Assembly (NCBI GenBank): GCA_965231145.1
Contig: OZ246420.1
Coordinates: forward strand, 960,001-992,000
Direction of reading: 5' to 3'
Length of the DNA stretch: 32,000 nucleotides
DNA from: Candidatus Saccharimonadota bacterium
GTDB taxonomy: Bacteria; Patescibacteriota; Gracilibacteria; Absconditabacterales; Absconditicoccaceae
Shown here piece after piece: positions 3,440-28,760 of this stretch. Below the pieces are notes generated by a model. The model saw only the letters and a list, made by a program, of their open reading frames with translations, did not search any database and was not told the DNA's origin. The translations under genes and the position numbers were made by a program. Position 1 is the first letter of the stretch. Each line of letters starts with the position of its first letter.

Positions 3440-6244
3440 TTATTTAATGATAAGATTGATAATTTTATCTTGGACAAAGATGATTTTTGCGATTTCCTTT
3501 CCTGCAAGAGACGAAGCAAATCTGTCATCACTCTGTATAAGATTCATGATTTCTTCTTGCGATGTTCATGCATTAATTTCCAATGTTCATTTCATCTTAC
3601 CGTTGATCTGTACTGGCAGATTTATGCTATCTGCTGCGATTTTTGAGGCATCATATTGTGGCCATGCAGAGAAATGAATAGTTGATTCGTTGCCGATTTG
3701 TTCCCATATTTTTTGTGTTACTCTTGTAGCAAATGGTGAAAGCAATTGAAGGAACATGCTGAGCTGTTGTTTGGTAATGGTCTTCTTATCGTAGACCTCA
3801 TTAACAAACACCATGAGTTTTGAAACCGCTGTGTTTCATTTTATCTTTTCTATATCCTCACTTACTCACTTGATCGTCTTATGAAGTATCGGCTCAAGAA
3901 CAGTACTTTCTGATGAAGTATCTAAGAATTGAGTAAGGCGTTCTACTCTCTCTAAGAATTTTTTCACTCCCATCATAGAGCTCACATTCCATACTTTCTC
4001 CTGTTCAATTGGTCACATGAACATGACATATGTTCTGAGCGTATCTGATCCGTGCTCCAGCGCAACTTCACTTGGGTTGATGACATTTCCCCAACGCTTT
4101 GACATTTTACGTCCGTCTGGCCCAAGGATAAATCACTGATGGACAAGCTTTTGAAATGGCTCTGCGCATGAAACATATCCCTGATCAAAGAGGAATTTAT
4201 GGATAAAACGAGAGTACAAGAGATGTCCATACGTATGCTCTTTCCCACCAATATAGAAATCTACAGGCAGCGTCTTGTCTGCAAGTTCTTTGCTGATAAG
4301 TTCTTTCTCGTTCTTCGGATCAATGAAACGCAAGAAGTAGAACGAGCTACACATAAATGTATCGAGCGTATCGCACTCGCGGAGATATGTTTTCCCGTCT
4401 TTTGCTGTATAATGTGGAAATGTTGGATGATCTGCGAGCGGAGACTTCCCTGCTGGCTTATAGTCCTTTACATCTAAAGGAAGAAGTACAGGAAGTTCAT
4501 CTTCAGGAATAAGCTGGGGATTTCCTGCTTCATCGTAATAGACCGGTATTGGAGAGCCCCAGTAACGCTGACGAGAAACAGACCAGTCGCGGAGTTTATA
4601 TGTTACCTTCGACCTTCCAACTCACTGCTCTTCCAGATATTCGGTTATTTTTTTCTTCGCTTCAACATTATCCATGCCATCAAACCTATCTGAATTGATA
4701 AGCTTTCCTGTTCATGTATATGCTTTATTTGCGTCTCTATGTCTTCTAAAGAAAACTAAATTAGAGTTGGCGGCTCCTGGTGTCTTTGAAAGGAAGGCGT
4801 CTACCTCCTCTACTGACACCCATACAAGTGCATGTACATCTGCACCCTCAATCTCTCAGGTATTATCCTGAGATTTTAAGCGATAAACAGCGCAATTTTC
4901 ACAACTATATCTATTGATATCTTTATGTGCTACATAATACTCAGCATGTATTTCTCAAGGAATCATCTCGACAAATTCCACATCTGAATATCCTGTTTCT
5001 TCTAATATCTCTCTTGCTCAGGCTGCTACAATATCCTCTCACTCTTCCACTCCTCACATCACAAACGACTTTCGGTCTTGCGTCTTTCGATCAATACACA
5101 ATACATTCTCCATTTTTTCATCGTAAAGCATCGCCAAGACATTGCGTCTTACACTATTTTGCTTCCCTTCTACCGGAGGATTTCACGAAATATAGTGCAT
5201 CGCTATAACGTCTTTCACTGCAAGATCGTGCTTTTTCGCAAAAGCCCAATCTCTTTCGTCGTGCGCAGGCACACACATGACCGCTCCTGTTGCGTAGTCA
5301 GGAAGCACGTAATCTGCAAACCAGACTGGAACTTGTTCATTGGTCAATGGATGTTTTGCGTAGACTCCTGAGAAAAATCCTGATCTTTCTTGTGCGTCTT
5401 GTTGTCTTTCGAGCGCGGTTTTCTTTCCTGTTACCTTGCGATATTCTACAAGCTCTGATTTCTTTTCAGCAGAAAGTAGTGAGTCCATAAGCTCATTTTC
5501 AGGCGCAAGCACGATAGCTGTTACTCCGTAGATCGTATCTGGTCTTGTCGTAAATACAGTTATTGAGGACTGAGCATTGAGAATTGAGAATTGAATTTCA
5601 GCGCCTTCAGACTTACCGATCCAGTATTTCTGCTGTGTCTTCGTTTCTTCCGGCCAATCGACAAGATCTAAGTCGTTGATAAGTCTTTCTGCGTAGTCGG
5701 TAATTTTGATAAACCACTGCATATGTTTTTTCTGTACGACTTCTGTCCCACAACGCTCACACTTTCCATCAACTACCTGGTCGTTTGCAAGTACCGTCTG
5801 GTCTTGTGGACACCAGTTTACAAAAGCTTCTTTACGATACACAAGTCCTGCTTTAAAAAGCTGCTGAAAAATCCACTGCGTCCATTTGTAGTATTCTGGC
5901 GACGAAGTCGCAAATTCGCGGTCCCAGTCGTAGCTCCAGTCCATGAGTCTACACTGTTCAATGAAGCTCGCAATATTTTCTTTTGTTACATCAACTGCAG
6001 GTTTTCCAACTTTCATAGCGTATCCTTCTGTTGGCAATCCAAAAGAGTCCCAACCGATAGGATTGAGCACTGAAAATCCATTCATGCGCTTGTAGCGAGC
6101 GATGATATCATTCGCCGTATATGGTAATGCATGTCCAACATGAAGCCCAGCCCCACTTGGATACGGAAACATCGCAAGCGAATAGAATATTTTATCTTTC
6201 GCTGCTTTTGTCAGATCAACTTTGAAAGGATTGTCTTTGTTCAT
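3440..6244 (-). CDS. leuS: Leucyl-tRNA synthetase with an embedded Nudix-like domain
   Basis: Track pieces 5183-6244, 4133-4354 and 3587-3814 plus the gaps form one frame of 2805 nt, with 14 in-frame TGA and no TAA/TAG by my reading. Motifs: HIGH as [24 protein letters not shown], [G][31 protein letters not shown] as [10 protein letters not shown], and C-terminal VQINGKMK[G]TLEI. TAA at 3440-3442 lies 5 nt before the tsaC ATG. Confidence 0.92.
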
Positions 6245-7075: not shown

Positions 7076-8509
7076 TTATAAGACGTCGCTTACAGCAACT
7101 ACCTCGAGGATTGGGAACTCCTTTCCATCGCGGAGGATATCTGAAACTACTACTACCTTATCTCCCTTTGCAACATTTCCTGTAGAAGCGATCTTCTCAA
7201 TTGCTTCCTTCAAGACCTCAGCATGGTGAGTAAACGGCAGGTATCTTGCTACAATACCGAAGAGGATCGTTGTGTTCGTAAATGTTCTTTCATTGTTAGT
7301 AAATGCATACACTGGCACAGTAGGTCTGTAAGCAGCAGCAAGTCTTGCGAGTCTTCCTGTCTTTGTGAAGACAACAATACCCTTTGCTCCTAGTGCTTCT
7401 GCTGTTTGCACCGCAGACTTAATGAGGAGTTTCTTCTCTTCATCTCTTGGAGTTAAACCAATTCCTTCATAGTCTTCATGTTTGTACTCAATAACTGATT
7501 CTGCCTGAAGAGCAACTTTTTTCATCATATCTACCGCTTGGATAGGATACTTACCAATTGTTGTTTCTCCTGAAAGCATGATCGCGTCAGCCTTCTGTAC
7601 TACTGCATTGAAGATGTCGCTTACTTCAGCTCTTGTTGGAAATGGATTTTCAATCATAGACTCAAGCATGTGTGTTGCAACGATAACATATTTACCATTT
7701 GCTCTACACATCTTTACGATATTTCTTTGGTATACTGGAAGTGTTTCAATCTCGATCTCAATACCAAGATCTCCACGAGCAACCATCACTCCATCTGAGT
7801 TAAGTACGATCTCTTCTACATTATCGAGCGCCTCCTGATTTTCAATCTTTGAAATAATCTGAATATGAGACGCGTTGTTCTCCGCAAGAAGATCACGAAG
7901 CTCCTTGATGTTGTCCTTGTTTCTTACGAAACTCATGGCAATATAGTCGAATCCATGCTCGATAGCGAAAAGCGTATCTTTCTTATCCTGAGGAATAAGA
8001 CCTGGAAGTCTGAGCTTCACACCTGGAAGATTTACGTGTCTGCGCTGTTTTACATTTTTCATAGAGTGAAGCGCTTCTACCACGAGATGGTCTGCAGCTT
8101 TTTCTTTCACGATAACATCTAAGAGTCCAGACTCAATCTTAATGATGTGACCTACTGTCAAATCTTCTACAAGATATGGATAGTCACATGAAAGATCTTG
8201 TTCACCTGTTGCTTTTGCAGGGTCTACGAAAATCTTAAATACATCTCCTTTCTCATAGTTTTTGAGACCTTCATAGTCTCCTGTTCTCATCTCAGGTCCT
8301 TTCGTATCGAGAAGAAGTCCGAGCTTTGTTGTTCCTGCTTTATTGAGCTTATGTACGATAGCAGCAACTTTTGCTGTATTGTCATAATCTGCATGAGAAA
8401 AGTTGAATCTCAATACATTTACTCCTGCCTTATAGAGAGCGATGATCTGATCCTCTGCCCATGTTACCGGACCAACAGTAGCAATAATTTTCGTTCTTTT
8501 CATAGCCAT
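7076..8509 (-). CDS. pyk: Pyruvate kinase
   Basis: Intact 477-aa ORF with no TGA. MKRTKIIATVGP..., LRFNFSHADY, LLDTKGPEMRTG, MVARGDLGIEIE and ATHMLESM are canonical PK motifs. The stop is TAA. Confidence 0.95.
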   Translation of the reverse strand: MAMKRTKIIATVGPVTWAEDQIIALYKAGVNVLRFNFSHADYDNTAKVAAIVHKLNKAGTTKLGLLLDTKGPEMRTGDYEGLKNYEKGDVFKIFVDPAKATGEQDLSCDYPYLVEDLTVGHIIKIESGLLDVIVKEKAADHLVVEALHSMKNVKQRRHVNLPGVKLRLPGLIPQDKKDTLFAIEHGFDYIAMSFVRNKDNIKELRDLLAENNASHIQIISKIENQEALDNVEEIVLNSDGVMVARGDLGIEIEIETLPVYQRNIVKMCRANGKYVIVATHMLESMIENPFPTRAEVSDIFNAVVQKADAIMLSGETTIGKYPIQAVDMMKKVALQAESVIEYKHEDYEGIGLTPRDEEKKLLIKSAVQTAEALGAKGIVVFTKTGRLARLAAAYRPTVPVYAFTNNERTFTNTTILFGIVARYLPFTHHAEVLKEAIEKIASTGNVAKGDKVVVVSDILRDGKEFPILEVVAVSDVL

Positions 8510-8547
8510 AGTAGCGTCATAATTACAAATTTAAATCAACCCTACCA

Positions 8548-8575
8548 ATTATAGGGATACCAAGCTTTTTTACAA
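8548..8575 (-). promoter_or_regulatory. Putative sigma70-like promoter for pyk (TTGTAA-N16-TATAAT on the minus strand)
   Basis: The reverse complement of 8570-8575 is TTGTAA and that of 8548-8553 is TATAAT, with a 16-nt spacer, about 40 nt upstream of the pyk ATG. Confidence 0.4.
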
Positions 8576-8586
8576 GGTGAAAACTC

Positions 8587-9870
8587 TTATCTTTTACCAT
8601 ATTGTGCTTTGCTTCCGAGCGCTCTTTCTATTCTCAGGAGCTGATTGTACTTCGCGATTCTATCGGTTCTGCTGAGCGAACCGGTCTTAATGTAACCAGC
8701 ATTTGTGGCTACAGCCAGATCGGCAATAAATGTGTCCTCTGTCTCTCCCGATCTATGTGAGATAATGCATGAAAGATTGTTTTTCTGCGCCAAAGCGATC
8801 GTATCGAGCGTCTCTGAAACTGAGCCGATCTGGTTGAGCTTAATAAGAATAGCATTTGAAAGATGTTGGTCAATTCCCATTTGGAGTCTTTTTACATTTG
8901 TCACATAGAGGTCATCTCCTACGGTGCGAACGCTCTTCTCGAGTCCTTTTTCTGCAAGAAGCTTTTCAAAATGTGCCCATCCTGCAAAGTCATCTTCTGC
9001 AAATCCGTCTTCAATACTCACGATCGGATAACGAGCGATAAGATCCATATAATACTCAGCCATCTCTTCTGAAGTCAAACTTTTTCCTTCTCCCGAAATT
9101 TCATATTTCCCTTCTTTGAAAAACTCTGACGATGCAACATCGAGACCGATCTTGATTTGCTCTGTCGTATATCCCGCATCACCAATAGCTTTTACGACTG
9201 TGTCTAATGCGATCGTATTGCTTGAAAGATTTGGAGCGTATCCTCCTTCGTCTCCTACACCTGTTGCAAGACCCTGTGACTTAAGGATCTTCTTGAGCGT
9301 ATGAAATACTTCTGCACCCATGCGAAGCGCCTCGCTAAATGAAGGAGCTCCCTGCGGGATGATCATAAATTCCTGAAAGTCTAAGCCGTTATCTGCATGC
9401 TCTCCTCCATTGATAATATTCATGTATGGAATCGGCAATACATATCCTTGTCCTTCTGAAAGGTACTCGTGAATAGCTTTTCCAGCCTCTTTTGCACACG
9501 CATCGATATATGCCATAGAAACAGCAAGGATTGCATTTGCACCAAGGTTCGATTTGTTTTCTGTAGCATCGAGCGTGAGCAATGCACTGTCGTGCTCGCG
9601 GAATGATGAAAATTCTTTTCCGACAATCGCCGCGCTGATCGTTGTATTAATATTATTCACAGCTTTTGTTGTACCCTTTCCAAGATATCTTGCTTTATCT
9701 CCATCGCGAAGTTCAAGAGCCTCGTGTGTTCCAGTCGACGCACCCGATGGCACAAGCCCTCTTCCTGTATGTCCTGACGCAAGCGTCACATTAGCTTCTA
9801 CCGTAGGGTTTCCTCTACTATCCATAATTTCTAGTCCTCGTACGTGTGTTATTTTTGTCATCGTTTTCAT
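8587..9870 (-). CDS. eno: Enolase (phosphopyruvate hydratase)
   Basis: Intact 427-aa ORF with no TGA. Motifs: [60 protein letters not shown]. The stop is TAA. Confidence 0.95.
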
Positions 9871-9961
9871 CTCAAAAAAAGTAAATCATCCAAGAGTTCA
9901 CACTATCGAAAACCACCTTCAATATCAAGCTCGACCCTCTCACAAATATATTTTTTTTTAC

Positions 9962-9988
9962 AAAAAAAGCCCCCGGAAACCCGGGGGC
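9962..9988 (-). terminator. Rho-independent terminator of ppdK
   Basis: Hairpin GCCCCCGG-AAAC-CCGGGGGC at 9969-9988, with an A-run at 9962-9968 (a T-run on the minus strand), 30 nt after the ppdK TAA. Its stem is identical to that of the icd-like terminator at 26047-26066. Confidence 0.7.
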
Positions 9989-10019
9989 TATATTTACAAC
10001 TATCTGTAAAAACAGTAGC

Positions 10020-12752
10020 TTAGTTCTTCGCAGCATCCTGCTGTTCGCGCAGCCTGATTGCAGACTGAGCAGCAGCGAAGATCGCCACAGGGATACGGAA
10101 TGGGCTACAGCCGACATAATCCAGGCCTATCTTATCGAATTCGTAGATAGACTTAGGATCGCCGCCATGCTCACCACATACACCGATCTGGATATCTGCA
10201 CCTTTTTCTGCACGCAAGCGTTTTACACCTATATGCATCATCTCCAGCACCAGCGGGTTTATCGTCTGGAACGGATCTGTAGGCAGTATCTTCTTCTCCA
10301 CATAGAAAGGAAGGAAAGTTGATGCGTCATCACGGGAGATGTTCATCACCGATGATGTCAGGTCATTGGACCCAAAGCTTGCAAATTGTGAAGGACGTGC
10401 CAAGTTAGTGCCGTCCAGGCAGGCTGCTGTGCATTCCATCATTGGTCCTACAAGGTAGTCTTTTTCTGCCACCAGATTGTATTCACTGGCTACTTCGTGC
10501 ACGATAGAAATTTGATTTTCATACTCTTTGGTGTTGAATACGAAAGGAACCTCTATTTCTACATGCGGATCGTAGCCGGCCGCTCTCAGTTCTACAATAG
10601 TTTCACATAAGGCCTTTATCTGTGCGCGGGCAATATCTGGGAACATAACGCCTAAGCGAGAGCCCCTCAGTCCAGAACCAGGATTGACCTCATGTAAACT
10701 TTCAATACGGCGTTCCAACTCATCGAGTGTAATACCCAGGTCGTTGGCAAGCCTTACCTTCTCATTCATTTGTGCCACTGCCTCCTCATGGTTGGAAGGT
10801 TTCGCAAAACTTACGAATTCATGGCGAGGAGGATCAAGCTCCCGCACCGTTACAGGCAAGCCATTCATTTCCACTAACGTGTTATAGAATGACCGCTTAA
10901 ACGCAGGCAGGAGTTTGCCAAGGGCATCGTTTGCTTCATCAGGTGATGTACTCAGAATGAGTTTTTTCATCATATAAAGCGACTCTGCGCCATCTTCACC
11001 ATAGAACATATGCTCTGTACGGAAGAGAGAAATACCTTCTGCGCCGAACTCGCGAGCACGGCGTGCATCTTCAGGTGTTTCTGCGTTTGCACGCACTCCC
11101 ATACGCTTGAGCGACATGGCCCAGGACATTACTTCCCTGAACGCATCAGTCTGCTCAGCAGGGCTCAGTTCGTGCTCTCCGAGGATCACCTCACCTGTAG
11201 TACTGTTGACCGATATCACATCACCTTCGCGCACTGTATGTTCACCTACGGTAAACAAGCGTTCAGCAAGGTTAATGGATATAGCGCCAGCTCCTACGAT
11301 ACATGGTTTACCCCAGCCGCGCATTACTACGCCAGCATGAGAAGACAGACCGCCTACCACTGTAAGCACTGCCTGTGAAACCCACATACCCTTTATATCT
11401 TCGGGCGAAGTTTCTCTGCGAACAAGTATTACTTTATGTCCTTCTGAAGCCAGCCTTACAGCAGTCTCCTTATCGAAAACTACCATACCACTGGCAGCGC
11501 CAGGAGAAGCAGCCAGGCCTTTTGCGATAACAGCCTTTGCTTCGCGGTATTCGTTCATAGTCAGCTCATTGAAGCGAGGAAGCAGCATCTGCAGTACATG
11601 ATCGGGCGCGATAAGCTTAGTGATGGCACGTTCTTTTGTTACCAGTCCTTCGTTTACCATTGCCACTGCTATTTCAAAAGCAGCCGTACCGTTGCGCTTA
11701 CCATTACGGGTTTGCAGCATAAACAGTTGGCCATCTTCGATAGTGAATTCAATGTCCTGGATATCTTGACGACTTCTTTCCAGGCTTTTCACTATGGTTA
11801 ACAGTTGCTCATATACTTCAGGCATGCGCTCTTTCAGCACACTTATAGGTTCGGGGGTTCTGATACCAGCAACAACGTCTTCACCCTGTGCATTGAAAAG
11901 TACTTCACCGTACAGTTCGTCCACACCTGTTGAAGGATTGCGCGTAAAGAGAACTCCGGTACCGGAACGCTCATTGAGGTTACCAAATACCATGGCCATC
12001 ACCACTACAGCAGTACCCAGAAGGTCATCCAGCTTCTCTATCTTACGATAGTCTATCGCCTTCTGGCCGTACCAGGACTTGAACACTGCTTCTACAGCAG
12101 GGAACAGTTGATCCCATACATCCTGCGGGAATGGCATGCCGGCATTTTCTTCGAACACTTCTTCATAAATAGCACAAAGCTGTTCCATATCTTTCGCAGC
12201 CATGTCATGGTCGCTGGCGATGTTGTGGTCGTTCTTATATTGGGCGAATGCATGTTCGAAAACCTCGTGGTCAATATTCATGACGGTTTCACCCCACATG
12301 TCTATCAACCTTCTATAGCAGTCCCAGGCAAAGCGCTCATTATTGAACTGCTCTATAAGTCCAGGTATTGTTGCGCGGCTTGTACCAACATTGAGTATTG
12401 TTTTGAGCATACCAGGCATGCTTACGGCAGCGCCAGAACGAGAACTCAGCAACAGTGGGTTATTAGAGTCTCCGAATGTGCGGCCCACCTTTTCACCTAC
12501 TTTGCCAACATACTCGCGTATCAGCTCTTTTTGCTGATCTATCATATATCCCCTTTCGAGGTACGGCTTACACTCAGTAGTGGGTATGATAAACCCCGGT
12601 GGTACTGGCACGCCATCTATGCTTGCCATTTCCATAAGGCCAAAGCCCTTTCCACCAAGGACATCCGCTTTGAGTCCTGCACCATTGGTTTTTCCCAGGC
12701 CAAAATGATATACTATCATTGCCTGAACTGTTGTTGCTACATTTGTCTCCAT
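10020..12752 (-). CDS. ppdK: Pyruvate, phosphate dikinase
   Basis: Intact 910-aa ORF. Motifs: LGGKGFGLMEM, VPVPPGFIIPTTEC, phospho-His loop GGLSSHAGVVMRGWGKPCIVG, SLFRTEHMF, CGEHGGDP. The stop is TAA. An alternative start is M12 (MIVYHF...). By eye it is more GC-rich than its flanks. Confidence 0.95.
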   Translation of the reverse strand: METNVATTVQAMIVYHFGLGKTNGAGLKADVLGGKGFGLMEMASIDGVPVPPGFIIPTTECKPYLERGYMIDQQKELIREYVGKVGEKVGRTFGDSNNPLLLSSRSGAAVSMPGMLKTILNVGTSRATIPGLIEQFNNERFAWDCYRRLIDMWGETVMNIDHEVFEHAFAQYKNDHNIASDHDMAAKDMEQLCAIYEEVFEENAGMPFPQDVWDQLFPAVEAVFKSWYGQKAIDYRKIEKLDDLLGTAVVVMAMVFGNLNERSGTGVLFTRNPSTGVDELYGEVLFNAQGEDVVAGIRTPEPISVLKERMPEVYEQLLTIVKSLERSRQDIQDIEFTIEDGQLFMLQTRNGKRNGTAAFEIAVAMVNEGLVTKERAITKLIAPDHVLQMLLPRFNELTMNEYREAKAVIAKGLAASPGAASGMVVFDKETAVRLASEGHKVILVRRETSPEDIKGMWVSQAVLTVVGGLSSHAGVVMRGWGKPCIVGAGAISINLAERLFTVGEHTVREGDVISVNSTTGEVILGEHELSPAEQTDAFREVMSWAMSLKRMGVRANAETPEDARRAREFGAEGISLFRTEHMFYGEDGAESLYMMKKLILSTSPDEANDALGKLLPAFKRSFYNTLVEMNGLPVTVRELDPPRHEFVSFAKPSNHEEAVAQMNEKVRLANDLGITLDELERRIESLHEVNPGSGLRGSRLGVMFPDIARAQIKALCETIVELRAAGYDPHVEIEVPFVFNTKEYENQISIVHEVASEYNLVAEKDYLVGPMMECTAACLDGTNLARPSQFASFGSNDLTSSVMNISRDDASTFLPFYVEKKILPTDPFQTINPLVLEMMHIGVKRLRAEKGADIQIGVCGEHGGDPKSIYEFDKIGLDYVGCSPFRIPVAIFAAAQSAIRLREQQDAAKN

Positions 12753-19995: not shown

Positions 19996-20814
19996 ATGAA
20001 ACAGACAATTATTGCACTTCTTATTTTCACGCTCAGCGTGACATCATGCACCAAGCGTGACCCTTTTCCTGAAGGCGCGGTTGAGCCTTCGGCTCCCGCA
20101 AGCGAGACAAGCACACCCAATACACAGGCTAAAATAAGCGTCTCTGGCAGCAATGTGGAGTATCGTATCAACACAGTATACGAAAACAACTATGTACATT
20201 GCTGCCAGCTTGGCGTGAGCAATGGCGGCAACGCATGTGGCCCGGCTTCATATATGCTCGCAGCGCATATGGTTGCCGCCGGCAACGGCTGGAGTTTTAT
20301 GCCAAGCAATACGACTAAGCTGACGGCTATTGTGAATAACATCGGAGCGATGCCTATCGACATGGGGCAGATTAGCACCTATGTCTCTCGCTACGATGGT
20401 ACCTACCTGAAAACGACGACACGCATTACCACAGACCGGAATAACTTTAAAAGTTTTCTGGAAAACAGCCTGGCCACAGGCGACCCGGTAATAGTACCGA
20501 TACGCATCAGCGGAAGTTCTCGTGCAAATGATAGTCGCTATACGACGGAAAATAGTTCAAACAATTATGACTTGGATGGAAGCGATCAGTACGGACGACC
20601 AAACTATATAAATACGTCTGGCATCGGACACTTTGTTGTGGTGATAGGTATCAAAGTAATAGGTTCGACAGGCAACGGATACGTCTACTACAAAGATCCA
20701 CTCGCCTCCGGCGGTGCAACGAAAGTATGTGTCTATGGCCGCTTCCTCAACTCCGCCCTGGCAAATGGTGCCAGTAGTAGTTACTATGATGCCATCACTA
20801 TTAGTAAAAAATAA
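19996..20814 (+). CDS. Lipoprotein, papain-fold cysteine peptidase of the C39-like (C39_2-type) kind
   Basis: Intact ORF. The signal peptide plus Cys (MKQTIIALLIFTLSVTSC) marks a lipoprotein. The putative nucleophile is in GGNACGPASYMLAA and the His in IGHFVVVIG. The stop is TAA and there is no TGA. By eye it is GC-richer than its flanks, with an A/C-rich leader (CAATTCAAAAATAATCACAATTTAAAAAC). Confidence 0.7.
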   Translation: MKQTIIALLIFTLSVTSCTKRDPFPEGAVEPSAPASETSTPNTQAKISVSGSNVEYRINTVYENNYVHCCQLGVSNGGNACGPASYMLAAHMVAAGNGWSFMPSNTTKLTAIVNNIGAMPIDMGQISTYVSRYDGTYLKTTTRITTDRNNFKSFLENSLATGDPVIVPIRISGSSRANDSRYTTENSSNNYDLDGSDQYGRPNYINTSGIGHFVVVIGIKVIGSTGNGYVYYKDPLASGGATKVCVYGRFLNSALANGASSSYYDAITISKK

Positions 20815-22122: not shown

Positions 22123-23670
22123 TTATTTCTCATCTCTTATTTCATCTAATACCTTCTGATAAATACATACCATCGCCCATGTATCTTGTTTACAGTACTC
22201 TAACAGATCCTGAATATGTTTGTTGCATACATCTGTTTCATACCTACCCTGGACGATCCCGGCCAGCAGCTCTGCTGCGATGGCGCCGTGTAGGACTGCG
22301 AGTCCGTCGTATGAGATGTCAGTGAGCACCGGTAAGACTTTTTTGATAGATGATGATCCGTGAAATTTACGATGGAAATATAATTGTTCGCTGAAGATTT
22401 CCATGAGGTCGAAAGTTTTTTCATTGATCTTTGCAAACACTTCTGCATATTGCGGATAGTGTTTCGCCATCTCGTCGTTTCTTGCATTTTCAAATCCCTT
22501 GAACCAGACAACGTACGTTCCTTCACCCCCTTCCAGATCTTGCACAAGCTGCTCCACGATCGTCTCGTTATCCTTCGCGCCCGCACCCACAATCGCCTCT
22601 TTATGCGAGATCGTTCCATCTTCATCCATGCGATGCACAGAGTACTGCACCACGCACTGCTGCCATGGAGATGTTCATTCAAGCAGCGGCACCGGCCATG
22701 CGATCGTTTCATAGTCGTAGAAAAATATCGGAAAATGGATGCTCTCCATTTTTTGTTTGATGCCATCGACATTAACAACTTTCTCTCACTGTTGCCATAG
22801 CGATACGTAATTACTCGCTCTTGTTTCATCGCCGCTCGCCGCGAAAAGCACCGCCCTCTCATCTTCCGTAAAATGATCAATCAGTTGTTTTCCTATCTCA
22901 TACAGATCTTTTTTCTTATTTCTAATCTGCGGGATATACCACATCGTTCCCTTTTCAGCCTCCTTCCCAAAAAACGTTAGATGATCTTCGTTATCGTATG
23001 GATAAAGCTTGGTGAACTCCTCTCTTTCCAGCTTGATTGTCTTCGTCATCGAGTCGATGATATTGAGCATCGCTTCTTCTTTTTTGAGTTCCGCACTCAC
23101 GTCTTCACGAAGCAACAGCTCTTCAGGATTTATCTCTCCGTGTCTGACATACTCTTTATTCATATATACCAAAAATATTTTTCCTGAATATTTTTCTTTC
23201 AATACTCTCCTCACGATAAAATCCTGAAAACTCACATCCGCTTGTAGATCATCTAATAGCTCCGCTGACTTCGTCTTTTTTCTTACGCCGTTTTTTGCTT
23301 TCACCTCCCGGATGTCATACGTTCCTTCTGCATTTTTTACGAGAAAATCACACTTTGCAAAAAGATTATCCAACAGAAATGCTGGTTGATAGATCACATC
23401 CGGAGACTGTGCAATGGCTTCGAGCGTGACATTATGAAATCACTGATACCAGTCAGGATGCTTACGCTGGATCTTATCGACATTCACAATATTTTTTCAT
23501 GCAAAAAGACGACAGACCTGTTCCTCAGCAGCTCTTCCGACCGCCAAACCATCCATCTCTCCATAGAGCTTTTCCATAATTTTCTCATACACGTTTTTAT
23601 CATGCACATGCCACCACGCAACATGTGGTGCTGTGACGAATTCGACGAAGAGGGATTTGGTAAGTTTCAT
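22123..23670 (-). CDS. DUF2779-family protein (PD-(D/E)XK-like nuclease N-domain + RNase H-like/exonuclease-like C-domain)
   Basis: Track pieces 22786-23397 and 22123-22653 plus the gaps form one frame of 1548 nt with 4 TGA. It runs from ATG at 23670 to TAA at 22123-22125. Family hallmarks: HFPIFFYDYETIAWPVPLLE[G]TSPWQQCVVQYSVH and FHGSSSIKKVLPVLT..SYDGL. Confidence 0.8.
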
Positions 23671-23705
23671 AGATAGCGATAGTAATTAATAATAAACTCT
23701 ATTTC

Positions 23706-24584
23706 TTATAATGCTACTACTCTTAATAAAACCTCTTTCCAATTTGATGACATCCTCATATGTGAGATTTGGACATGAGAATGTTTTTTTAATAACACTT
23801 CTAGCTTCTTTATAAAGTTCTTAGGTTTTGAATTAGCATGTTTTAAAAGCACGACAATTACTATAGCGTATGAAAAGAAGGAATCAGCATCCTGAAAAAA
23901 ACTAGTGTAATTATTATTGCTTACTTTTAATTTTCACGTCATTGTTTTGTTCCAAAGCCTATCATGATGAGCACAAATATTTCTCATATGAGCTAAACAT
24001 CGCATTCGATTTTCATAGACGAGAAAGTATAATTGCGACACACTACTAATCTGCATCTGATATTGTGGATTGAGGCATTTGTAAATCGACACAGCCTCAC
24101 CAAATGACGCTATCTGTAGAATAATCCAAATAGGTGGATATGGCGGCGCGTTATAAGTTTTGTAATAATGCCTAACGGTATAATGATCTTTATTTTTTTC
24201 TACGATATCTTTTATTTTTTTCTCTAAACGAGGGAAGTCTTTAAAGAGTTGTGAATTAAGGTGATAAAAAGATCCATCTAATTCTCAGATTTCACGTATT
24301 AATGCGGATTTAAAAGAATTTTCTATGATTTCAAGATACTCTACACACAAAGATCTTAATTTTTTATCAAACTCATAAAGCTCTACGAGGTGATCAAAAG
24401 TAACATCTTTTTGAAAACTATCATCGCTGTTTTGATAAGCTTTTGCATAAATAGAAATACGATAGTATCCCACATTTTTCAAATACCACACTACTTTTTT
24501 AGTCTTGGATATTATCAATCACCTACTATGAAATAGGCTTATTTGCTGGTCAACTGTAAGTATTGGCTTTATATAGTCAGTCAT
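23706..24584 (-). CDS. Abi_2 family (AbiD/AbiF-like) abortive-infection-type protein
   Basis: 293 codons in one frame with 3 TGA, from ATG at 24584 to TAA at 23706-23708. Motifs: LKNVGYYRISIY, LYEFDKKLRSL, and the family signature MRNICAHHDRLWN. Confidence 0.8.
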
Positions 24585-24766
24585 ATCTTTATATTTTCCT
24601 TTTTAAAAACTTGCAATATGAATAATATTCATTAATATAGTTACATCAATATCTGCCAGCCTCTGCTTAACGGCATGCCAACCGGGCAGATTTTTGTTAT
24701 ATAAATTTTTACGTTATCACTTATTCTACCCATTCCCATTAAAATAACAATCTCACACTACAGTTC

Positions 24767-24794
24767 TTGACATTTATTGGAAGAAGATTATCAT
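24767..24794 (+). promoter_or_regulatory. Cassette promoter 1: TTGACA-N16-TATCAT
   Basis: TTGACA at 24767-24772 and TATCAT at 24789-24794, then the leader TCATCAAAAAAC, with ATG at 24824. Confidence 0.5.
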
Positions 24795-24823
24795 ATCGGT
24801 TCATCAAAAAACATAACTAATTT

Positions 24824-26002
24824 ATGAAAAGAAAATTATTTGTACCCCAAACCATTACGGTTCCTACTGTAGCAGGAGATGGCATTGGCAAAGAAATTAT
24901 GCCCGCTATTATCGCCATACATATGGCAGCAAGCTCCCCCATCCACTTTGCAACCGGCTATATGCTCGGCCAGCAGTCTCTGGATATGGGCGGTATGCTT
25001 ATACCAAAGGAACTGACAGATGCCTTTACGAAGCATAAAATTCTGTTCAAAGGCCCTCTGGCAACACCTAAAGGGAAAGGCCATAAAAGCATCAACCTGA
25101 CTCTCAGGGACATGTTCAACCTGCATACCAACTTCCGGCCAGTTACTTCACTACCCGGTATCACTACCAGGTTCAGCCAACTAACAGGCGCCATTATGGA
25201 CCTTATCCCCTGGCGTAATCAGAGCGTGGACATCGTAGTATTCCGCGAGAATACGGAAGATCTTTACAAGAACACTGAAGAGTTTTCCGGCGACAATGAA
25301 GATGCTACCATCACATTTAAGCTTTCGAAGGCGGCTGCGCGCAAGATACTTACTTCAGCAGCAGAATATGCTATAAAGGCCGGGCGCAAAAAGATAACCT
25401 TCATCCACAAGTCAAACATCATAAAGGCATATGGCCTCTATATAGATGTGATGACCAAAGAGATAGCGCCTCAATACCCTGACCTACAGTTCGAGGAATA
25501 TGTAGTGGATGCTTACTGTGAGAAAGTGGTAATGGATCCTACCAGGTTCGATATTGTTGTTGCCCCGAACCTTTTTGGCGACATCGTGTCTGACCTGCAT
25601 TTGGGCCTCATCGGCGGTCTTGGCTTTGGCCCTGGCGCCAACCTCGGCGACGAATACGCTATGTTCGAGGCCATACATGGCTCTGCTGACGGCACAGATG
25701 GCATAGCCGGCAAAGGCATTGCAAACCCTACCGGCATGCTCCTTTCCAGCGTACTTATGCTGGAACATGTGGGCGACTACATCACAGCAGAACGCATAAA
25801 AAGTGCGTTGTTCTATGTGCTGGAGCACAAGAAAGACGCCTGTACTCCGGACTGTCTGGGCGATGTGGACAAAGCCGTAAAAGCCGCTCATCCCGGCACT
25901 ACTGCCACGATGGAAGCGGCCATCATCGCTGCTCTCGCAGATACCCACCGCACCTTCAACCAGGAGTGGCTGGAAGCAAGCGGCGCTGCAGTGACGGCAT
26001 AA
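24824..26002 (+). CDS. icd: Isocitrate dehydrogenase-like protein (isocitrate/isopropylmalate dehydrogenase family)
   Basis: Intact 392-aa ORF. IDH-type substrate motif KSINLTLRDMFNLHTNFRP (cf. E. coli SLNVALRQELDLYICLRP). Other motifs: VVFRENTEDLY, IHKSNIIK, NLFGDIVSD, GANLGDEYAMFEAIHGSA...AGKGIANP. The stop is TAA and there is no TGA. It looks GC-richer than the backbone. Confidence 0.85.
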   Translation: MKRKLFVPQTITVPTVAGDGIGKEIMPAIIAIHMAASSPIHFATGYMLGQQSLDMGGMLIPKELTDAFTKHKILFKGPLATPKGKGHKSINLTLRDMFNLHTNFRPVTSLPGITTRFSQLTGAIMDLIPWRNQSVDIVVFRENTEDLYKNTEEFSGDNEDATITFKLSKAAARKILTSAAEYAIKAGRKKITFIHKSNIIKAYGLYIDVMTKEIAPQYPDLQFEEYVVDAYCEKVVMDPTRFDIVVAPNLFGDIVSDLHLGLIGGLGFGPGANLGDEYAMFEAIHGSADGTDGIAGKGIANPTGMLLSSVLMLEHVGDYITAERIKSALFYVLEHKKDACTPDCLGDVDKAVKAAHPGTTATMEAAIIAALADTHRTFNQEWLEASGAAVTA

Positions 26003-26046
26003 CTTTTTGCCATTGGTACCTATAATATCCTATTATGCCCCCGGAA

Positions 26047-26071
26047 ATCCGGGGGCTTTTTCTTATGTTAC
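26047..26071 (+). terminator. Rho-independent terminator of the icd-like gene
   Basis: GCCCCCGG-AAAT-CCGGGGGC at 26047-26066, followed by TTTTT. Confidence 0.75.
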
Positions 26072-26254
26072 AATTACTTTAGTTCTCGGATAGAATACAC
26101 AGACACAACCAAAAACTATCATTATGCAAGCAGCCCCAATACCTACCTGCTACCTTATATCCAATCTCCTTTGTGAATTAAGGTACCAAGCGACCAACTT
26201 ATGGGCATAGCCCACCCACAGTAAAGCCTGTATTGTACGTGCCTTTTCTTATGG

Positions 26255-26283
26255 CTGACATTTCAGCACAAATTTCTTACAAT
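26255..26283 (+). promoter_or_regulatory. Cassette promoter 2: cTGACA-N17-TACAAT
   Basis: CTGACA at 26255-26260 and TACAAT at 26278-26283, then the leader TCAAACAAAA at 26292-26301. Confidence 0.45.
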
Positions 26284-26317
26284 TCTTCTCGTCAAACAAA
26301 ATGATCACCCATAAAAT

Positions 26318-27127
26318 ATGCTATGTATGGAAATGAAAATCAAAATAACGGGGAAACCACTTGTACTTAACACATTAGACAATCTCCAGCCAAACAAAAA
26401 GGTATGGTTGTCGCATGAGTCTTTGCTCTTTACCAAAACAAACGATTTCTACATCTATAAGAAAGCCCAATTTGTAGGCCGGGCATCTCCGGATAATGGC
26501 TATATTGTTCCTGTCGAGCTTGACGAAGAAGGATATCTGAACGTATGCTTTAAAGAAATACGCTTTGCCTTTAACATGAGCGATGACAAAGAGCTCAAAG
26601 ATGTTGATATCAATGAATATCTCCATCTTAGCAATGTAGAAATGGAAAAACAAAAAGACGACAGGGATTGGATTAGAAGATCAATGATAGACGACTTGTT
26701 CCAGTCTTTCAGTCTTTGCCTTCTCAACGATCTTTGTCCCATGGAGAACTTACTTTGTATCCATGAGACATTGTTGGATCGCATAGTGAGTTGTGAAGAT
26801 AAGGATTTATTAGAAGACCTTGTCGAATTCTGCTCACGAAATTTCAAGGAAGAAAGCCTTATTGCATCATCAGATGAACAAGCTGAAGCTTTGGAACAAA
26901 ACCTGGAATTGCTCACTGCCAAATTACACAAAAGAGTCGATGAAGTCCAAAATTTATTAGACTCTTTAAAAGTCGTCGCCACAGAACGTGTCGCCCTTTT
27001 GCCTCAGGAAGAGACAGAAGAGAGCATGCAAAAAGATCTCGATACAGCAATAGCACAAGAAGACTACAACAAAGCTGTTGATATAAGAAATAACATGCTG
27101 GGAAAGGGGTTTAAGCCTAACAGTTGA
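26318..27127 (+). CDS. Hypothetical protein (about 266-269 aa) with a C-terminal UVR-like motif; stops on TGA
   Basis: Intact ORF with possible starts at 26318, 26327 and 26333. The C-terminus MQKDLDTAIAQEDYNKAVDIRNNM resembles the UvrB/UvrC/McsA UVR motif (M..A....dfE.AA.lRD.i). The stop is TGA at 27125-27127, 20 nt before the terminator. Confidence 0.7.
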   Translation: MLCMEMKIKITGKPLVLNTLDNLQPNKKVWLSHESLLFTKTNDFYIYKKAQFVGRASPDNGYIVPVELDEEGYLNVCFKEIRFAFNMSDDKELKDVDINEYLHLSNVEMEKQKDDRDWIRRSMIDDLFQSFSLCLLNDLCPMENLLCIHETLLDRIVSCEDKDLLEDLVEFCSRNFKEESLIASSDEQAEALEQNLELLTAKLHKRVDEVQNLLDSLKVVATERVALLPQEETEESMQKDLDTAIAQEDYNKAVDIRNNMLGKGFKPNS

Positions 27128-27146
27128 AATAGAACAAGTTATTACA

Positions 27147-27170
27147 AGCCCCGTTATTCGGGGTTTTTCT
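27147..27170 (+). terminator. Rho-independent terminator of cassette 2
   Basis: CCCCG-TTATT-CGGGG at 27149-27163 with extending A-T/G-U pairs and a T-run, running into TTTTTCTTTTA and the next -35. Confidence 0.7.
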
Positions 27171-27174
27171 TTTA

Positions 27175-27203
27175 TTGACATTTCCTAATATAAAAGTTAT
27201 CAT
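27175..27203 (+). promoter_or_regulatory. Cassette promoter 3: TTGACA-N17-TATCAT
   Basis: TTGACA at 27175-27180 and TATCAT at 27198-27203, then the leader TCAAACAAAAAGACAAACCT, with ATG at 27227. Confidence 0.5.
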
Positions 27204-27226
27204 TGCTCAAACAAAAAGACAAACCT

Positions 27227-28030
27227 ATGGAAAAAAATGGTATATTAGCTCGACCTTTTATAAAGGATATTTCTAAGGGAAAGGTATTTTACTGCAATCC
27301 CGACATCTCTGTAGTAGTATTCCCTGAGGATAAATTAGTGTATTTGTGCCCTTATGGAGAAGCTTCACAAACATACAATAAGGAACTAAACCTTATTTGT
27401 CCTATCCAAAAAATTGATGGTAGCGTTATTCTCATGCCAGATACTGTGTATGTGCATACCGCATATCATAAAAGCCAAAAGAAAATCATGGAAAGCATTA
27501 TTGATTGGTATCAGCTACCTACTCACATCACTATCACCGGTAATATACCGTCACCAATAGACTTACCTTATGAAGCAATGGACGTACTCTCTCTCGAGAG
27601 CTATCTAACAGATTGGCTGACAATTTGTGAAGACAATAAAAGAAAACCTGTAAAAGTAGAAGAAGTTCTTACTATTAAAAAAGTTTTTCTGAAAAAGATC
27701 GAGACTGAAACGAACAAACAAACACTCATCGAAACATGGAACAATGTAGAAGTATCTCTAAACGAATTCAATGACGAATCCACGCAAGCGCTACTACATG
27801 AGATACACCAATCACTATCAAACAGGCTTTTGACTCTCGGTAGTAGAAAGGCATCTAGAAACGCAAAAGATAAAATTCCTTTAGAAGAATCCTCTCTATC
27901 TGATCTAAAGACGAATTTTAATGCCTACACTAAAGAAGAATTTGACGCTTTTCTAAGCGGATTAGATGGAGACGCAAGCGAAACTGCATTAGCAATAGCC
28001 CAATACATACGAGACCATCGCCCAAATTAG
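27227..28030 (+). CDS. Hypothetical protein (267 aa)
   Basis: Intact ORF. The track starts it at TTG 27203, but ATG 27227 fits the leader spacing of the other cassettes. The stop is TAG. I recognise no family. Confidence 0.7.
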   Translation: MEKNGILARPFIKDISKGKVFYCNPDISVVVFPEDKLVYLCPYGEASQTYNKELNLICPIQKIDGSVILMPDTVYVHTAYHKSQKKIMESIIDWYQLPTHITITGNIPSPIDLPYEAMDVLSLESYLTDWLTICEDNKRKPVKVEEVLTIKKVFLKKIETETNKQTLIETWNNVEVSLNEFNDESTQALLHEIHQSLSNRLLTLGSRKASRNAKDKIPLEESSLSDLKTNFNAYTKEEFDAFLSGLDGDASETALAIAQYIRDHRPN

Positions 28031-28060
28031 ATCAACAAAATTTTATTATCACAACATCTT

Positions 28061-28085
28061 AAAACCGGTCATGTACCGGTTTTTC
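28061..28085 (+). terminator. Rho-independent terminator of cassette 3
   Basis: AAAACCGGT-CATGT-ACCGGTTTT at 28061-28083, then TTTTTCTTATTC. Confidence 0.7.
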
Positions 28086-28091
28086 TTATTC

Positions 28092-28119
28092 TTGACATCT
28101 TTTTTTAAAAAATTATCAT
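28092..28119 (+). promoter_or_regulatory. Cassette promoter 4: TTGACA-N16-TATCAT
   Basis: TTGACA at 28092-28097 and TATCAT at 28114-28119, then the leader TCAAACAAAACCAATCGT, with ATG at 28145. Confidence 0.5.
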
Positions 28120-28144
28120 TTCCGGGTCAAACAAAACCAATCGT

Positions 28145-28714
28145 ATGAGCAAAACACTATTTAACATATTTCCTCTAGGAGGAAATGGCTCTGTGAGCTT
28201 TATATGCGCTGATGCAGACGCATCCGCAGACGTGATAGACATTGCCAATAGCAACGGTCAATCACCTTTTACTATATCCATGATAGGATGTCAACCCATG
28301 TGGTATGTCATACCGATATGTGCTTGTAACCCTATCATAGCAGTTACACATGAATACGCACTAGAAACCAACCAGGTTGGTTCTCTCTTTGCTCTGGTTG
28401 AATCTCTGTTGTCAGCGGGAGAACAACTGTATAACAAAAAACAGCGTTGCTTTGATGATGCTGTTCCCGGACATCGTGTTCTGATAGAAAATGGTAAGAG
28501 CAAAATCATCCGGAGCGAGGCGAGATTCACAAAAAATATAGTGGACGAATGTCTGTCTATAAAAAGCGTTCGAACATTCTATGAGAAACTACAGACGCAG
28601 GTATTAACTTCTGCAGATATAGATGCATTTGTACATACGTTTGTAGATTGTGGAGAAAAGGTAACAGGTCGTCTCATGGAGCAATCTGGCAATGCTGTAG
28701 TTGCGCAGAACTAA
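28145..28714 (+). CDS. Hypothetical protein (189 aa)
   Basis: Intact ORF with a TAA stop. I recognise no family (MSKTLFNIFPLGGNGSVSFICADADASADVID...). Confidence 0.7.
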   Translation: MSKTLFNIFPLGGNGSVSFICADADASADVIDIANSNGQSPFTISMIGCQPMWYVIPICACNPIIAVTHEYALETNQVGSLFALVESLLSAGEQLYNKKQRCFDDAVPGHRVLIENGKSKIIRSEARFTKNIVDECLSIKSVRTFYEKLQTQVLTSADIDAFVHTFVDCGEKVTGRLMEQSGNAVVAQN

Positions 28715-28732
28715 GAAAATATATGTCTATCT

Positions 28733-28760
28733 AAAAGCCCCGACATCTCGGGGCTTTTTT
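28733..28760. terminator. Bidirectional terminator shared by cassette 4 and mutS
   Basis: AAAA-GCCCCG-ACATCT-CGGGGC-TTTTTTTT. The hairpin ends 6 nt before the mutS TAA (28761-28763), separated only by the T-run. Confidence 0.75.

Follow-up and report, generated by a model that had tools for sequence, protein, structure and literature searches.

The ORF1 locus and the code of its host

The window (the whole 32,000-nucleotide stretch of DNA under consideration) encodes an orphan protein, ORF1, as part of an array of genes that adjoins those for Abi_2, DUF2779 and MutS. Its frame is opened by an upstream stop at 26315, and the first ATG (26318) gives a protein of 269 aa; the starts of the homologues correspond to 26327 or 26333, i.e. 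266 or 264 aa. The 3' end reads ...CCT AAC AGT TGA (27116-27127), which confirms the terminal AAC AGT TGA described in an earlier, sequence-only reading of this DNA. The features in and around the gene are as follows:

26255..26283, plus strand: promoter-like site of ORF1, CTGACA-17-TACAAT; the -35 element in the sister strain L001 is TTGACA
26327..27124, plus strand: ORF1 coding sequence to the family-conserved C-terminus ...KGFKPNS (266 aa), with alternative starts at 26318 and 26333
27125..27127, plus strand: TGA in the stop position of all examined homologues, which have TAA or TAG there; Gly under code 25
27128..27190, plus strand: predicted readthrough tail of 21 further codons (NRTSYYKPRYSGFFFY-G-HFLI), absent from the homologues; 38 aa in all in the sister strain
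27146..27176, plus strand: intrinsic terminator, an 8-bp hairpin (27146-27166) and a T-tract (27167-27176), inside the extended ORF1 frame
27175..27203, plus strand: ORF2 promoter TTGACA-17-TATCAT, with 11 of 12 consensus matches; left break point of an ORF2 allele swap between strains
27191..27193, plus strand: TAA, at which the ORF1 frame meets its first stop under this genome's code

The terminator shows the canonical intrinsic layout: the hairpin AAGCCCCG-TTATT-CGGGGTTT, with a stem of 8 bp (five of them G-C pairs) and a loop of 5 nt, is followed directly on its 3' side by the T-tract TTCTTTTATT. The centroid structure has an energy of -12.3 kcal/mol, and against shuffles the full fold reaches a z of -3.1. 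The stem as defined by the folding tool begins 18 nt past the TGA and its G/C core 20 nt past it, the figure of 20 nt in the sequence-only reading being right for the core. If TGA is taken as sense, the frame continues as G-NRTSYYKPRYSGFFFY-G-HFLI, i.e. 22 codons to the TAA at 27191-27193, and crosses both the hairpin and the next promoter's -35 element, as had been claimed; the second in-frame TGA of the extension sits within that element, TTGACA (27175-27180). An Rfam search of the window found no family. The spacer from TGA to hairpin has 15 extra bases; a tandem duplication was considered as their source and was dropped, the repeat being too weak.

The ORF1 protein begins with an N-terminal beta domain, is helical in its middle part and closes with a UVR-like helical hairpin at the C-terminus; its AF2 model is confident (pLDDT 89.5), with helices at 231-243 and 247-259. 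Across the family this hairpin carries the motif EDYxKAxxIR; four of the ten members match the UVR motif PF02151 (best E 4.5e-5), with ORF1 itself at 14 bits (E 0.043) against a Pfam gathering cut-off of 21.5. Whereas the hairpin likens the family to UVR-motif proteins, the rest of ORF1 has no detectable relative in the databases searched: neither ORF1-3 nor other array genes could be assigned to a family with Pfam, NCBIfam or PADLOC, Foldseek of the AF2 model against the PDB gave no match below E 0.5, and the sole BFVD match was weak, pairing the N-terminal beta domain with an uncharacterised phage protein (E 0.002).

In-frame TGAs occur in half of the window's genes (ten of 20), at 2-14 per gene. 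The Walker A motif of MutS reads IIT#PNM#GKST (# = TGA), opposite IITGPNMGGKST in the E. coli protein, and TGAs encode the two Walker A glycines; when G#PNM#GKS is set against GPNMGGKS of E. coli, four of the five TGAs of the segment align to Gly. Likewise, DUF2779 orthologues interchange TGA and GGN at identical positions. Among named organisms, those closest in their pyruvate kinase are Candidatus Gracilibacteria, Candidatus Vampirococcus lugosii and Candidatus Altimarinota. The alignments show that the host genome reads TGA as Gly, and the two Walker A codons bear out the earlier statement that the flanking mutS needs this assignment. All BD1-5 genomes have been reported to lack prfB (PMC6851277), and the reading of UGA as Gly has been confirmed by proteomics, with zero peptides unique to a database built with UGA as stop (PMC4032931). 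Neither the window nor seven related loci contain tRNA or tmRNA genes; hence, the gene for tRNA-Gly(UCA) must sit elsewhere.

The ORF1 family and its conserved end

An exhaustive profile search of 1.84 billion representative proteins yielded an ORF1 family of ten members, and the DNA of nine relatives was inspected, P0011 being left out. All nine lie on contigs with TGA as sense, as seen from their in-frame TGA load, e.g. 14 in MutS (L010), 37 in a helicase (L011), eight in MutS (L019) and seven in DUF2779 (L018). Their gene order is either DUF2779, the array and MutS or IDH followed by ORF1, with syntenic orthologues, located between DUF2779 and MutS or past IDH, in L010, L011, L017, L018 and L019. 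Scanning 185,579 species genomes with a two-sequence alignment found no ORF1 homologue, while a five-sequence alignment found a single contig, L017, labelled Woesebacteria yet TGA-sense. A scan of metagenomes re-found L003 and nothing else. P0005 and P0010 had been considered as fragments parted by an in-frame TGA, which was rejected as the parting codon is TAA.

In the family alignment (A3) all members end right past the UVR-like motif, with the signature KGFxPxx and the pattern P-x-x-stop. The stop at the position of the ORF1 TGA is TAA in six cases (L010, L017, L018, L019, L020 and L022) and TAG in two (L003/L004 and L011). The sequence-only reading had pointed to the C-termini of homologues, and to a possible conservation of the extension in other table-25 genomes, as informative: the relatives end exactly at the ORF1 TGA position, no homologue is extended and the tail of the sister strain is different. 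The alignment thus places the TGA at the ancestral stop position of ORF1. In all eight other loci a TAA or TAG precedes the hairpin, i.e. the layout with an in-frame terminator is not conserved. The hairpin itself is identical in the orthologous locus L010, where it lies 3' of the ORF1 orthologue.

Orthologues of ORF1 are 27-43% identical; the flanking MutS and DUF2779 are 78-84% identical. The orthologue in L018 contains a premature in-frame TAA. That locus also has extra array genes, of which the interval between IDH and ORF1 in the window (26003-26326) retains no remnant. The inspected relatives, all in TGA-sense contigs with a shared neighbourhood and TAA or TAG ends, show that ORF1 is native rather than imported, and the comparisons mark it as lineage-specific and fast evolving.

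The sister strain L001 keeps the TGA and reads a different tail, GNRTSYYKPRYTGFFFYGHCLFKAYNIITSKNTSYEI (38 versus 22 aa), its extended frame running to a TAG that shares bases with the ORF2' start. ORF1 is identical in the two strains (0 differences in 801 nt) despite a divergence of their IDH genes at 25 of 741 sites (3.4%), which suggests a recent spread of the TGA allele by recombination or a sweep.

Interpretation of the terminal TGA

We consider it probable that the terminal TGA arose by ordinary stop-loss in a native, fast-evolving gene of a Gracilibacteria-type bacterium with TGA as Gly, and that it is read through as Gly. Under the host code the TGA would have to be read through here, in line with the continued frame of the earlier reading; for the decoding at this particular codon, the direction and nature of the mutation, and the fate of transcript and protein, we infer the following course. 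The original stop, most simply a TAA, would have become TGA by a single A-to-G transition. As these bacteria are reported to be without release factor 2 and use UGA for Gly, ribosomes would be expected to insert Gly and carry on past the ORF1 end. The terminator and the promoter that follows it would thereby come to encode an unselected tail of 22 residues on the protein, or of 38 residues in the sister strain. Transcripts ending at the in-frame terminator would be stop-less and need ribosome rescue of the tmRNA or ArfB type, while transcription would be more apt to continue into ORF2 when ribosomes run into the hairpin. The net effect is likely neutral to hypomorphic.

That L001 retains the TGA with another tail suggests that the tail is not under selection. 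The terminal TGA is sporadic: across about 37 gene-end/terminator pairs in roughly 130 kb of related TGA-sense DNA, ORF1 is the sole real gene without a TAA or TAG before its terminator, and a terminal TGA is found in one of 22 array genes. Its singularity among the gene ends and its exact match to the stop position of the relatives set this TGA apart from a chance occurrence. A relaxed constraint on ORF1 is plausible given the low identity between orthologues and the broken copy in L018. Counting against stop-loss are the TGA avoidance of the whole array and the recent spread of the allele, as a clearly deleterious mutation would hardly be expected to spread in this way.

An unlikely alternative is that the stop-loss inactivates the gene: most transcripts would end at the terminator as non-stop mRNAs, the product would be tmRNA-tagged and degraded, and ORF1 would be in early pseudogenisation. 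In recoded E. coli without RF1, genes ending in UAG have their products tagged by tmRNA and degraded (PMC6207430). The location of the terminator within the extended frame, the in-frame TAA of the L018 orthologue, and the patchy distribution and fast evolution of the family are all consistent with such decay. However, ORF1 is without further lesions, and an identical allele in two strains so divergent in IDH suggests recent spread. Moreover, a hairpin usually terminates less well when ribosomes move into it, and weakened termination would return the TAA at 27191 to the mRNA. Inactivation amounts to a stronger version of the consequences predicted for simple stop-loss.

It is quite improbable that the extension is useful, with the tail serving as a new functional C-terminus or with anti-termination coupling ORF1 to ORF2 expression. 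The retention of the TGA in two strains, the TAG overlapping the ORF2' start in L001 and a geometry compatible with ribosome-dependent anti-termination would fit this; however, the tail varies between the strains in both sequence and length, its first 17 residues are translated terminator, conserved as DNA in L010 and untranslated there, the arrangement is absent from other family members, and ORF2 has its own promoter with 11 of 12 consensus matches.

The sequence-only reading had taken gene geometry to mean that the TGA is the intended stop, of standard-code ancestry, and had offered a recently acquired gene from a standard-code donor, now carrying a C-terminal extension, as one explanation. 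What stands of these claims is the ancestral stop position, given by the homologue ends, and the extension across the terminator and the -35 element; the standard-code ancestry and the recent acquisition are not supported, given the TGA-sense syntenic relatives and the native composition. A recent import of ORF1 or of the whole island, with TGA as the original stop, is highly improbable and already largely refuted. It would account for the TGA at the conserved C-terminus and for zero in-frame TGAs in ORF1 and its island neighbours, but all nine inspected relatives lie in TGA-sense genomes with conserved synteny and TAA or TAG stops, and the one contig found among the species genomes is TGA-sense too. 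The composition of ORF1 (GC 0.39, GC3 0.41) is like that of neighbouring native genes, and its codon usage (RSCU) correlates better with native TGA-containing genes (0.44) than with the GC-rich class represented by IDH and PPDK (0.21); for ORF1-3 together the values are r = 0.52 and 0.27, respectively. The lack of internal TGA was rejected as proof of foreign origin: ORF1 has merely six Gly codons, so that zero TGA is expected with P of about 0.24 and is not significant alone, and the native genes for pyruvate kinase and enolase are TGA-free as well.

Extremely improbable is a TGA acting as a real, conditional stop, in an array readable in both codes, with ORF1 terminating in the presence of RF2 (e.g. 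phage-encoded) or in a standard-code partner. The 22 array genes from ten loci use 231 GGN codons for Gly and no TGA, versus about 21% TGA among the Gly codons of the flanking genes, and the array lies beside Abi_2 and DUF2779 with its alleles swapped between strains, all of which would suit such a system. However, just one of the 22 array genes has a terminal TGA, and one or fewer would be expected only about 5% of the time if TGA stops have the frequency of about 20% assumed for genomes of this GC content. Genes of central metabolism lack TGA just as the array does, a pattern that points to codon choice tied to expression. The sole published proposal of a phage RF2 acting against a TGA-recoded host has since been reassigned, the phage being a crAss-like one of Bacteroidetes (bioRxiv 10.1101/2021.08.26.457843). 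For the related suggestion of the sequence-only reading, DNA meant to be read in a different cell, there is nothing in favour, and the scarcity of terminal TGAs in the array speaks against it. We know of no mechanism for such expression in another cell.

Finally, an assembly chimera or sequencing error, which the sequence-only reading had also raised and which would fit only the apparent conflict of two codes, can practically be dismissed, as the assembly is sound and the contig not chimeric: contigs from three independent assemblies (ERR4405439, ERR4405440 and ERR4405441) show 100% identity over stretches of 6-17 kb that take in both island borders, the same TGA is present in a second strain, the window's proteins are found on an NCBI contig of 1,107,293 bp, and the gene order is repeated in other genomes.

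Parallels and biological significance

The locus shares with the code 25 reassignment of UGA to Gly in Gracilibacteria/Absconditabacteria the TGAs at conserved Gly positions of MutS and DUF2779 and the affinities of its pyruvate kinase to Gracilibacteria and Vampirococcus. The ORF1 TGA differs in that it replaces a stop rather than a Gly position, and would lengthen the protein without encoding a conserved residue. Context-dependent codons which serve as both stop and sense are known from Condylostoma, Parduczia and Blastocrithidia, where they are eukaryotic and genome-wide. The likeness is a triplet that is sense inside genes yet stands at a gene end near the mRNA 3' end, but a TGA that closes one gene in about 37 gives no hint of a context-dependent stop/sense system here. 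A further parallel is arfA, which is expressed from a non-stop mRNA in a conserved, regulatory arrangement. The ORF1 hairpin (27146-27166), lying between the TGA at 27125 and the TAA at 27191, could similarly yield stop-less transcripts whose product could depend on tmRNA activity; however, the arrangement is found in one allele and is absent from all orthologues. An analogy for a terminal codon unusable for termination is RF1-deleted recoded E. coli (Ma et al. 2018, PMC6207430), where readthrough, extension and rescue by tmRNA, ArfA or ArfB are likewise to be expected. There, UAG is unassigned and ribosomes stall, whereas UGA in this host would have a cognate tRNA-Gly, for which smooth readthrough would be expected, with stalling only at the mRNA 3' end; also, the ORF1 case is natural and concerns a single gene.

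If stop-loss is correct, ORF1 would be a natural case of stop-codon reassignment acting on one gene: a change from TAA to TGA, silent under the standard code, would here drive translation across the gene's own terminator. It is also a caution for annotators, ORF1 looking normal under code 11 and odd under code 25. Its importance is modest, there being no sign of foreign DNA, a second genetic code or an assembly error.

The array is more interesting than the TGA. Its avoidance of TGA leaves room for a code-related constraint on its genes, and one conjecture, to which we give hardly any credence, is that the array adjoining mutS is kept TGA-free so as to be translatable under any UGA state, such as the presence of RF2 from a phage or partner cell or the loss of tRNA-Gly(UCA), with the ORF1 TGA as a conditional switch. 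In that case a normal cell would read the TGA through, giving a terminator-truncated, stop-less mRNA and a degraded product, while restored UGA termination would leave ORF1 properly terminated and active. The promoter form TTGACA...TATCAT with 11 of 12 matches occurs in this window only at array genes, by which it was rejected as a genome-wide feature. These are conserved orphan genes without any TGA, every one of them with a consensus promoter and a terminator of its own, which evolve several times faster than their flanks and swap alleles between strains.

Glycine decoding of TGA and the end of ORF1

When only TAA and TAG are taken as stops, long genes of the window contain in-frame TGAs, e.g. 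those for leucyl-tRNA synthetase (14), MutS (12-13), DUF2779 (4), Abi_2 (3) and others. Four of the five TGAs in the MutS Walker A segment align with glycines of E. coli MutS, the Walker A codons (IIT-TGA-PNM-TGA-GKST) matching its IITGPNMGGKST, and TGA and GGN are exchanged at identical positions between the DUF2779 orthologues of the window and L018, a locus with an ORF1 relative. Among named lineages, the pyruvate kinase is closest to those of Candidatus Gracilibacteria, Candidatus Vampirococcus lugosii and Candidatus Altimarinota. prfB is reported to be absent from every BD1-5 genome (PMC6851277), and proteomics recovered 40 stringent peptides with glycine at UGA but none specific to a database with UGA as stop (PMC4032931). 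No tRNA genes were found in the window or related loci. TGA is decoded as glycine in this genome, as the sequence-only reading had required for the flanking mutS and Abi_2.

The synthetase gene (3440-6241, minus strand) carries a NUDIX domain inserted after the editing domain (~4717-5197; residues 366-485, Pfam E 7e-13; Nudix box 4988-5056), and its TGAs are absent from the first ~380 codons, all 14 lying in the remainder. DUF2779, with a hint of a RecB-like/RNase H fold, and Abi_2 (22123-24584, minus strand), both with in-frame TGAs, are immediately upstream of an array of small genes that extends towards mutS and includes ORF1.

Features of the array and the ORF1 3' end (window positions, then other loci)
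24760-28760, plus strand: array of small genes IDH, ORF1, ORF2 and ORF3
27146-27166: terminator hairpin AAGCCCCG-TTATT-CGGGGTTT, then TTCTTTTATT, 18 nt 3' of the ORF1 TGA
27175-27180 and 27198-27203: near-consensus ORF2 promoter, TTGACA, spacer 17, TATCAT
L010 5566-7584; L018 1784-6223; L019 1014-2577; L011 8613-10783: corresponding arrays

The ORF1 frame opens past a stop at 26315, with the first ATG at 26318 giving 269 aa (homologue starts align with 26327 or 26333), and ends CCT AAC AGT TGA (27116-27127). With TGA as sense it continues as G-NRTSYYKPRYSGFFFY-G-HFLI to TAA at 27191-27193, its second in-frame TGA falling within the -35 hexamer of the ORF2 promoter. A canonical terminator (centroid energy -12.3 kcal/mol; full fold z = -3.1 against shuffles) thereby sits between the ORF1 TGA and the next valid stop; all these elements, as originally described, are present in the sequence.

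The ORF1 family and its ancestral stop

A word-indexed search with ORF1 recovered only two proteins, its identical copy and one with 49% identity. When 1.84 billion representative proteins were searched exhaustively with an HMMER profile, the family came to 10 members in all. ORF1 has no significant match among Pfam, NCBIfam or PADLOC families. Its AF2 model is confident (pLDDT 89.5) and starts with an N-terminal beta domain (~1-101); a helical middle segment leads to a C-terminal helical hairpin at 231-259, which is followed by a short coil up to residue 266. The hairpin is predicted to be UVR-like: PF02151 matches four of the 10 members (best E 4.5e-5), ORF1 itself being under the cut-off. 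Foldseek found no match to the model in the PDB, and just one weak match to the N-terminal part in BFVD, an uncharacterised phage protein.

In the alignment, all full-length members end a few residues past a C-terminal EDYxKAxxIRxxM, typically with KGF-x-P-x-x. The DNA of nine relatives was compared at the position of the ORF1 TGA.

Codons of ORF1 relatives at the position of the window's ORF1 TGA
L003/L004: TAG
L010: TAA
L011: TAG
L017: TAA
L018: TAA
L019, L020, L022: TAA

Because the relatives' TAA or TAG stand at this position, the TGA is a replaced stop at the ancestral stop position, most simply derived from TAA by a single A-to-G transition. The 21-codon extension, whose conservation in other code-25 genomes (TGA as glycine) would have marked it as genuine protein, occurs in none of the relatives with inspected DNA. 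The L018 orthologue (3817-4593) is interrupted at codon 51 by an in-frame TAA and is therefore recorded in the protein database as two separate fragments, P0010 and P0005.

Origin of the array and its avoidance of TGA

Each array gene has its own promoter, an A/C-rich leader (CAAACAAAA) and its own terminator adjoining the next -35. The IDH, ORF2 and ORF3 promoters (TTGACA-N16/17-TATCAT) show 11/12 matches and that of ORF1 10/12. The array proteins are orphans, 27-43% identical between loci as against 78-84% for the flanks. Apart from gains and losses of members, orthologous families recur in unchanged order between DUF2779 and MutS in other TGA-sense genomes.

Across 22 array genes from 10 loci (window, L001, L003, L010, L011, L017-L020 and L022), 5548 codons hold 231 GGN glycines and no in-frame TGA. 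The avoidance is real: array neighbours not picked via protein search have 106 GGN and no TGA (P ~1e-11 at a 21% TGA share). Our leading guess is expression-linked avoidance of a minor codon, the economical explanation since TGA is just as absent from pyruvate kinase (29 Gly), enolase (42), PPDK (74) and others. TGA use in the window is bimodal (7076-12752, 19996-20814, 24824-26002), with pyruvate kinase, enolase, PPDK, a C39-like peptidase and IDH being Gly-rich and TGA-free; atypical composition is seen in IDH (GC 0.50, 27 of 33 glycines GGC), PPDK (0.48) and the peptidase (0.48).

The TGA-free array might instead have been built for a standard-code reader, i.e. as DNA meant for another cell; against this, TGA is the terminal codon of just one of the 22 genes, at most one being expected ~5% of the time if TGA made up an assumed ~20% of permitted stops. 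A code-state-dependent switch in the array is highly improbable.

Standard-code ancestry through recent acquisition also fails. The ORF1 relatives reside on contigs with TGA as sense: L010 has a MutS with 14 TGAs, L019 one with 8, L011 a 1192-codon helicase with 37, L020 long ORFs with 10-12, L018 a DUF2779 with 7 and L017 one TGA-containing ORF, while L003 is too short for a direct call, its upstream gene sharing 71% identity with a gene of the L018 array. The order DUF2779, array, MutS is common to L010, L017, L018 and L019, and in L011 IDH immediately precedes the ORF1 homologue. GC (0.39) and GC3 (0.41) of ORF1 are as in native neighbours, and its RSCU correlates better with native TGA-containing genes (r 0.44; 0.52 for ORF1-3) than with the GC-rich IDH/PPDK class (0.21; 0.27). 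With TGA making up ~21% of glycine codons in flanking genes (59/284), the six glycine codons of ORF1 would lack TGA 24% of the time, so a terminal without an internal TGA does not indicate standard-code ancestry. ORF1 is native, not imported. L017 (JAGORW010000095.1), labelled Candidatus Woesebacteria, is probably mis-binned, because it carries in-frame TGAs, an ORF1 homologue and a Gracilibacteria-type DUF2779 orthologue.

A chimeric contig or sequence error is excluded by separately assembled contigs from ERR4405439 (49.9 kb), ERR4405440 and ERR4405441, matching the window at 100% identity for 6-17 kb and spanning both island borders, by the 269-aa and IDH proteins recorded on a 1,107,293-bp NCBI contig, and by the same TGA in a second strain (L001, ERR7850080).

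Strain comparison and predicted consequences of the lost stop

L001 is near-identical to the window through the ORF1 terminator and -35 and diverges completely beyond, because ORF2 has been exchanged for another allele; its extended frame reads GNRTSYYKPRYTGFFFYGHCLFKAYNIITSKNTSYEI (38 aa, 22 in the window). Since ORF1 differs at 0/801 nt between the strains and IDH at 25/741 sites (20 synonymous), the ORF1 allele, TGA included, has spread recently via recombination or a sweep. The ORF2 swap (window 27175-28090, L001 1915-2874) is bounded by the -35 TTGACAT on one side and the following terminator on the other; the L001 allele is 48% identical to the L018 gene and matches window ORF2 in no more than the final ~50 aa. 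Together with the ORF1 and IDH counts, the swap points to a recombination hot spot. The ~200-nt non-coding spacer from the IDH terminator to the ORF1 promoter (26057-26254) has a single strain difference, at 26143, and neither an Rfam match nor a detectable array-gene remnant.

The first 17 residues of the readthrough tail merely translate the terminator, whose DNA is kept, untranslated, 3' of the TAA in L010 (CCCCGTTATTCGGGGTTTTTCTTTT-G/A-TTGACAT); the tail thus appears to be under no selection. In a scan of ~130 kb, made up of the window and related loci with TGA as sense, for long reading frames that end at most 60 nt upstream of a hairpin and T-tract, we found 33 gene ends at TAA and five at TAG; frames lacking either before the hairpin were the ORF1 allele (window and L001) and one spurious alternative frame. 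Nothing in these ~130 kb suggests that TGA serves as a stop in a position-dependent manner across the genome.

Ribosomes would place glycine at the ORF1 TGA and continue; ribosomes entering a hairpin should weaken termination, and part of the transcripts may reach the TAA and run into ORF2. Transcripts ending at ~27170 would be stop-less and subject to tmRNA or ArfB rescue, with tagging and degradation, as has been demonstrated in E. coli lacking RF1 for genes that end in UAG (PMC6207430). Relaxed constraint on ORF1 would fit the premature TAA in L018 and an orthologue identity of just 27-43%, against 78-84% for the flanking MutS and DUF2779; the lack of differences between strains beside the 25 in IDH speaks against it.

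Of the original interpretation, the ancestral stop position and the C-terminal extension stand, and standard-code ancestry, a foreign reader and a chimera fall away. The TGA of ORF1, a member of a new orphan family, is most likely an ordinary stop-loss substitution that the reassigned code has exposed; overall it probably ranges in effect from neutral to hypomorphic.
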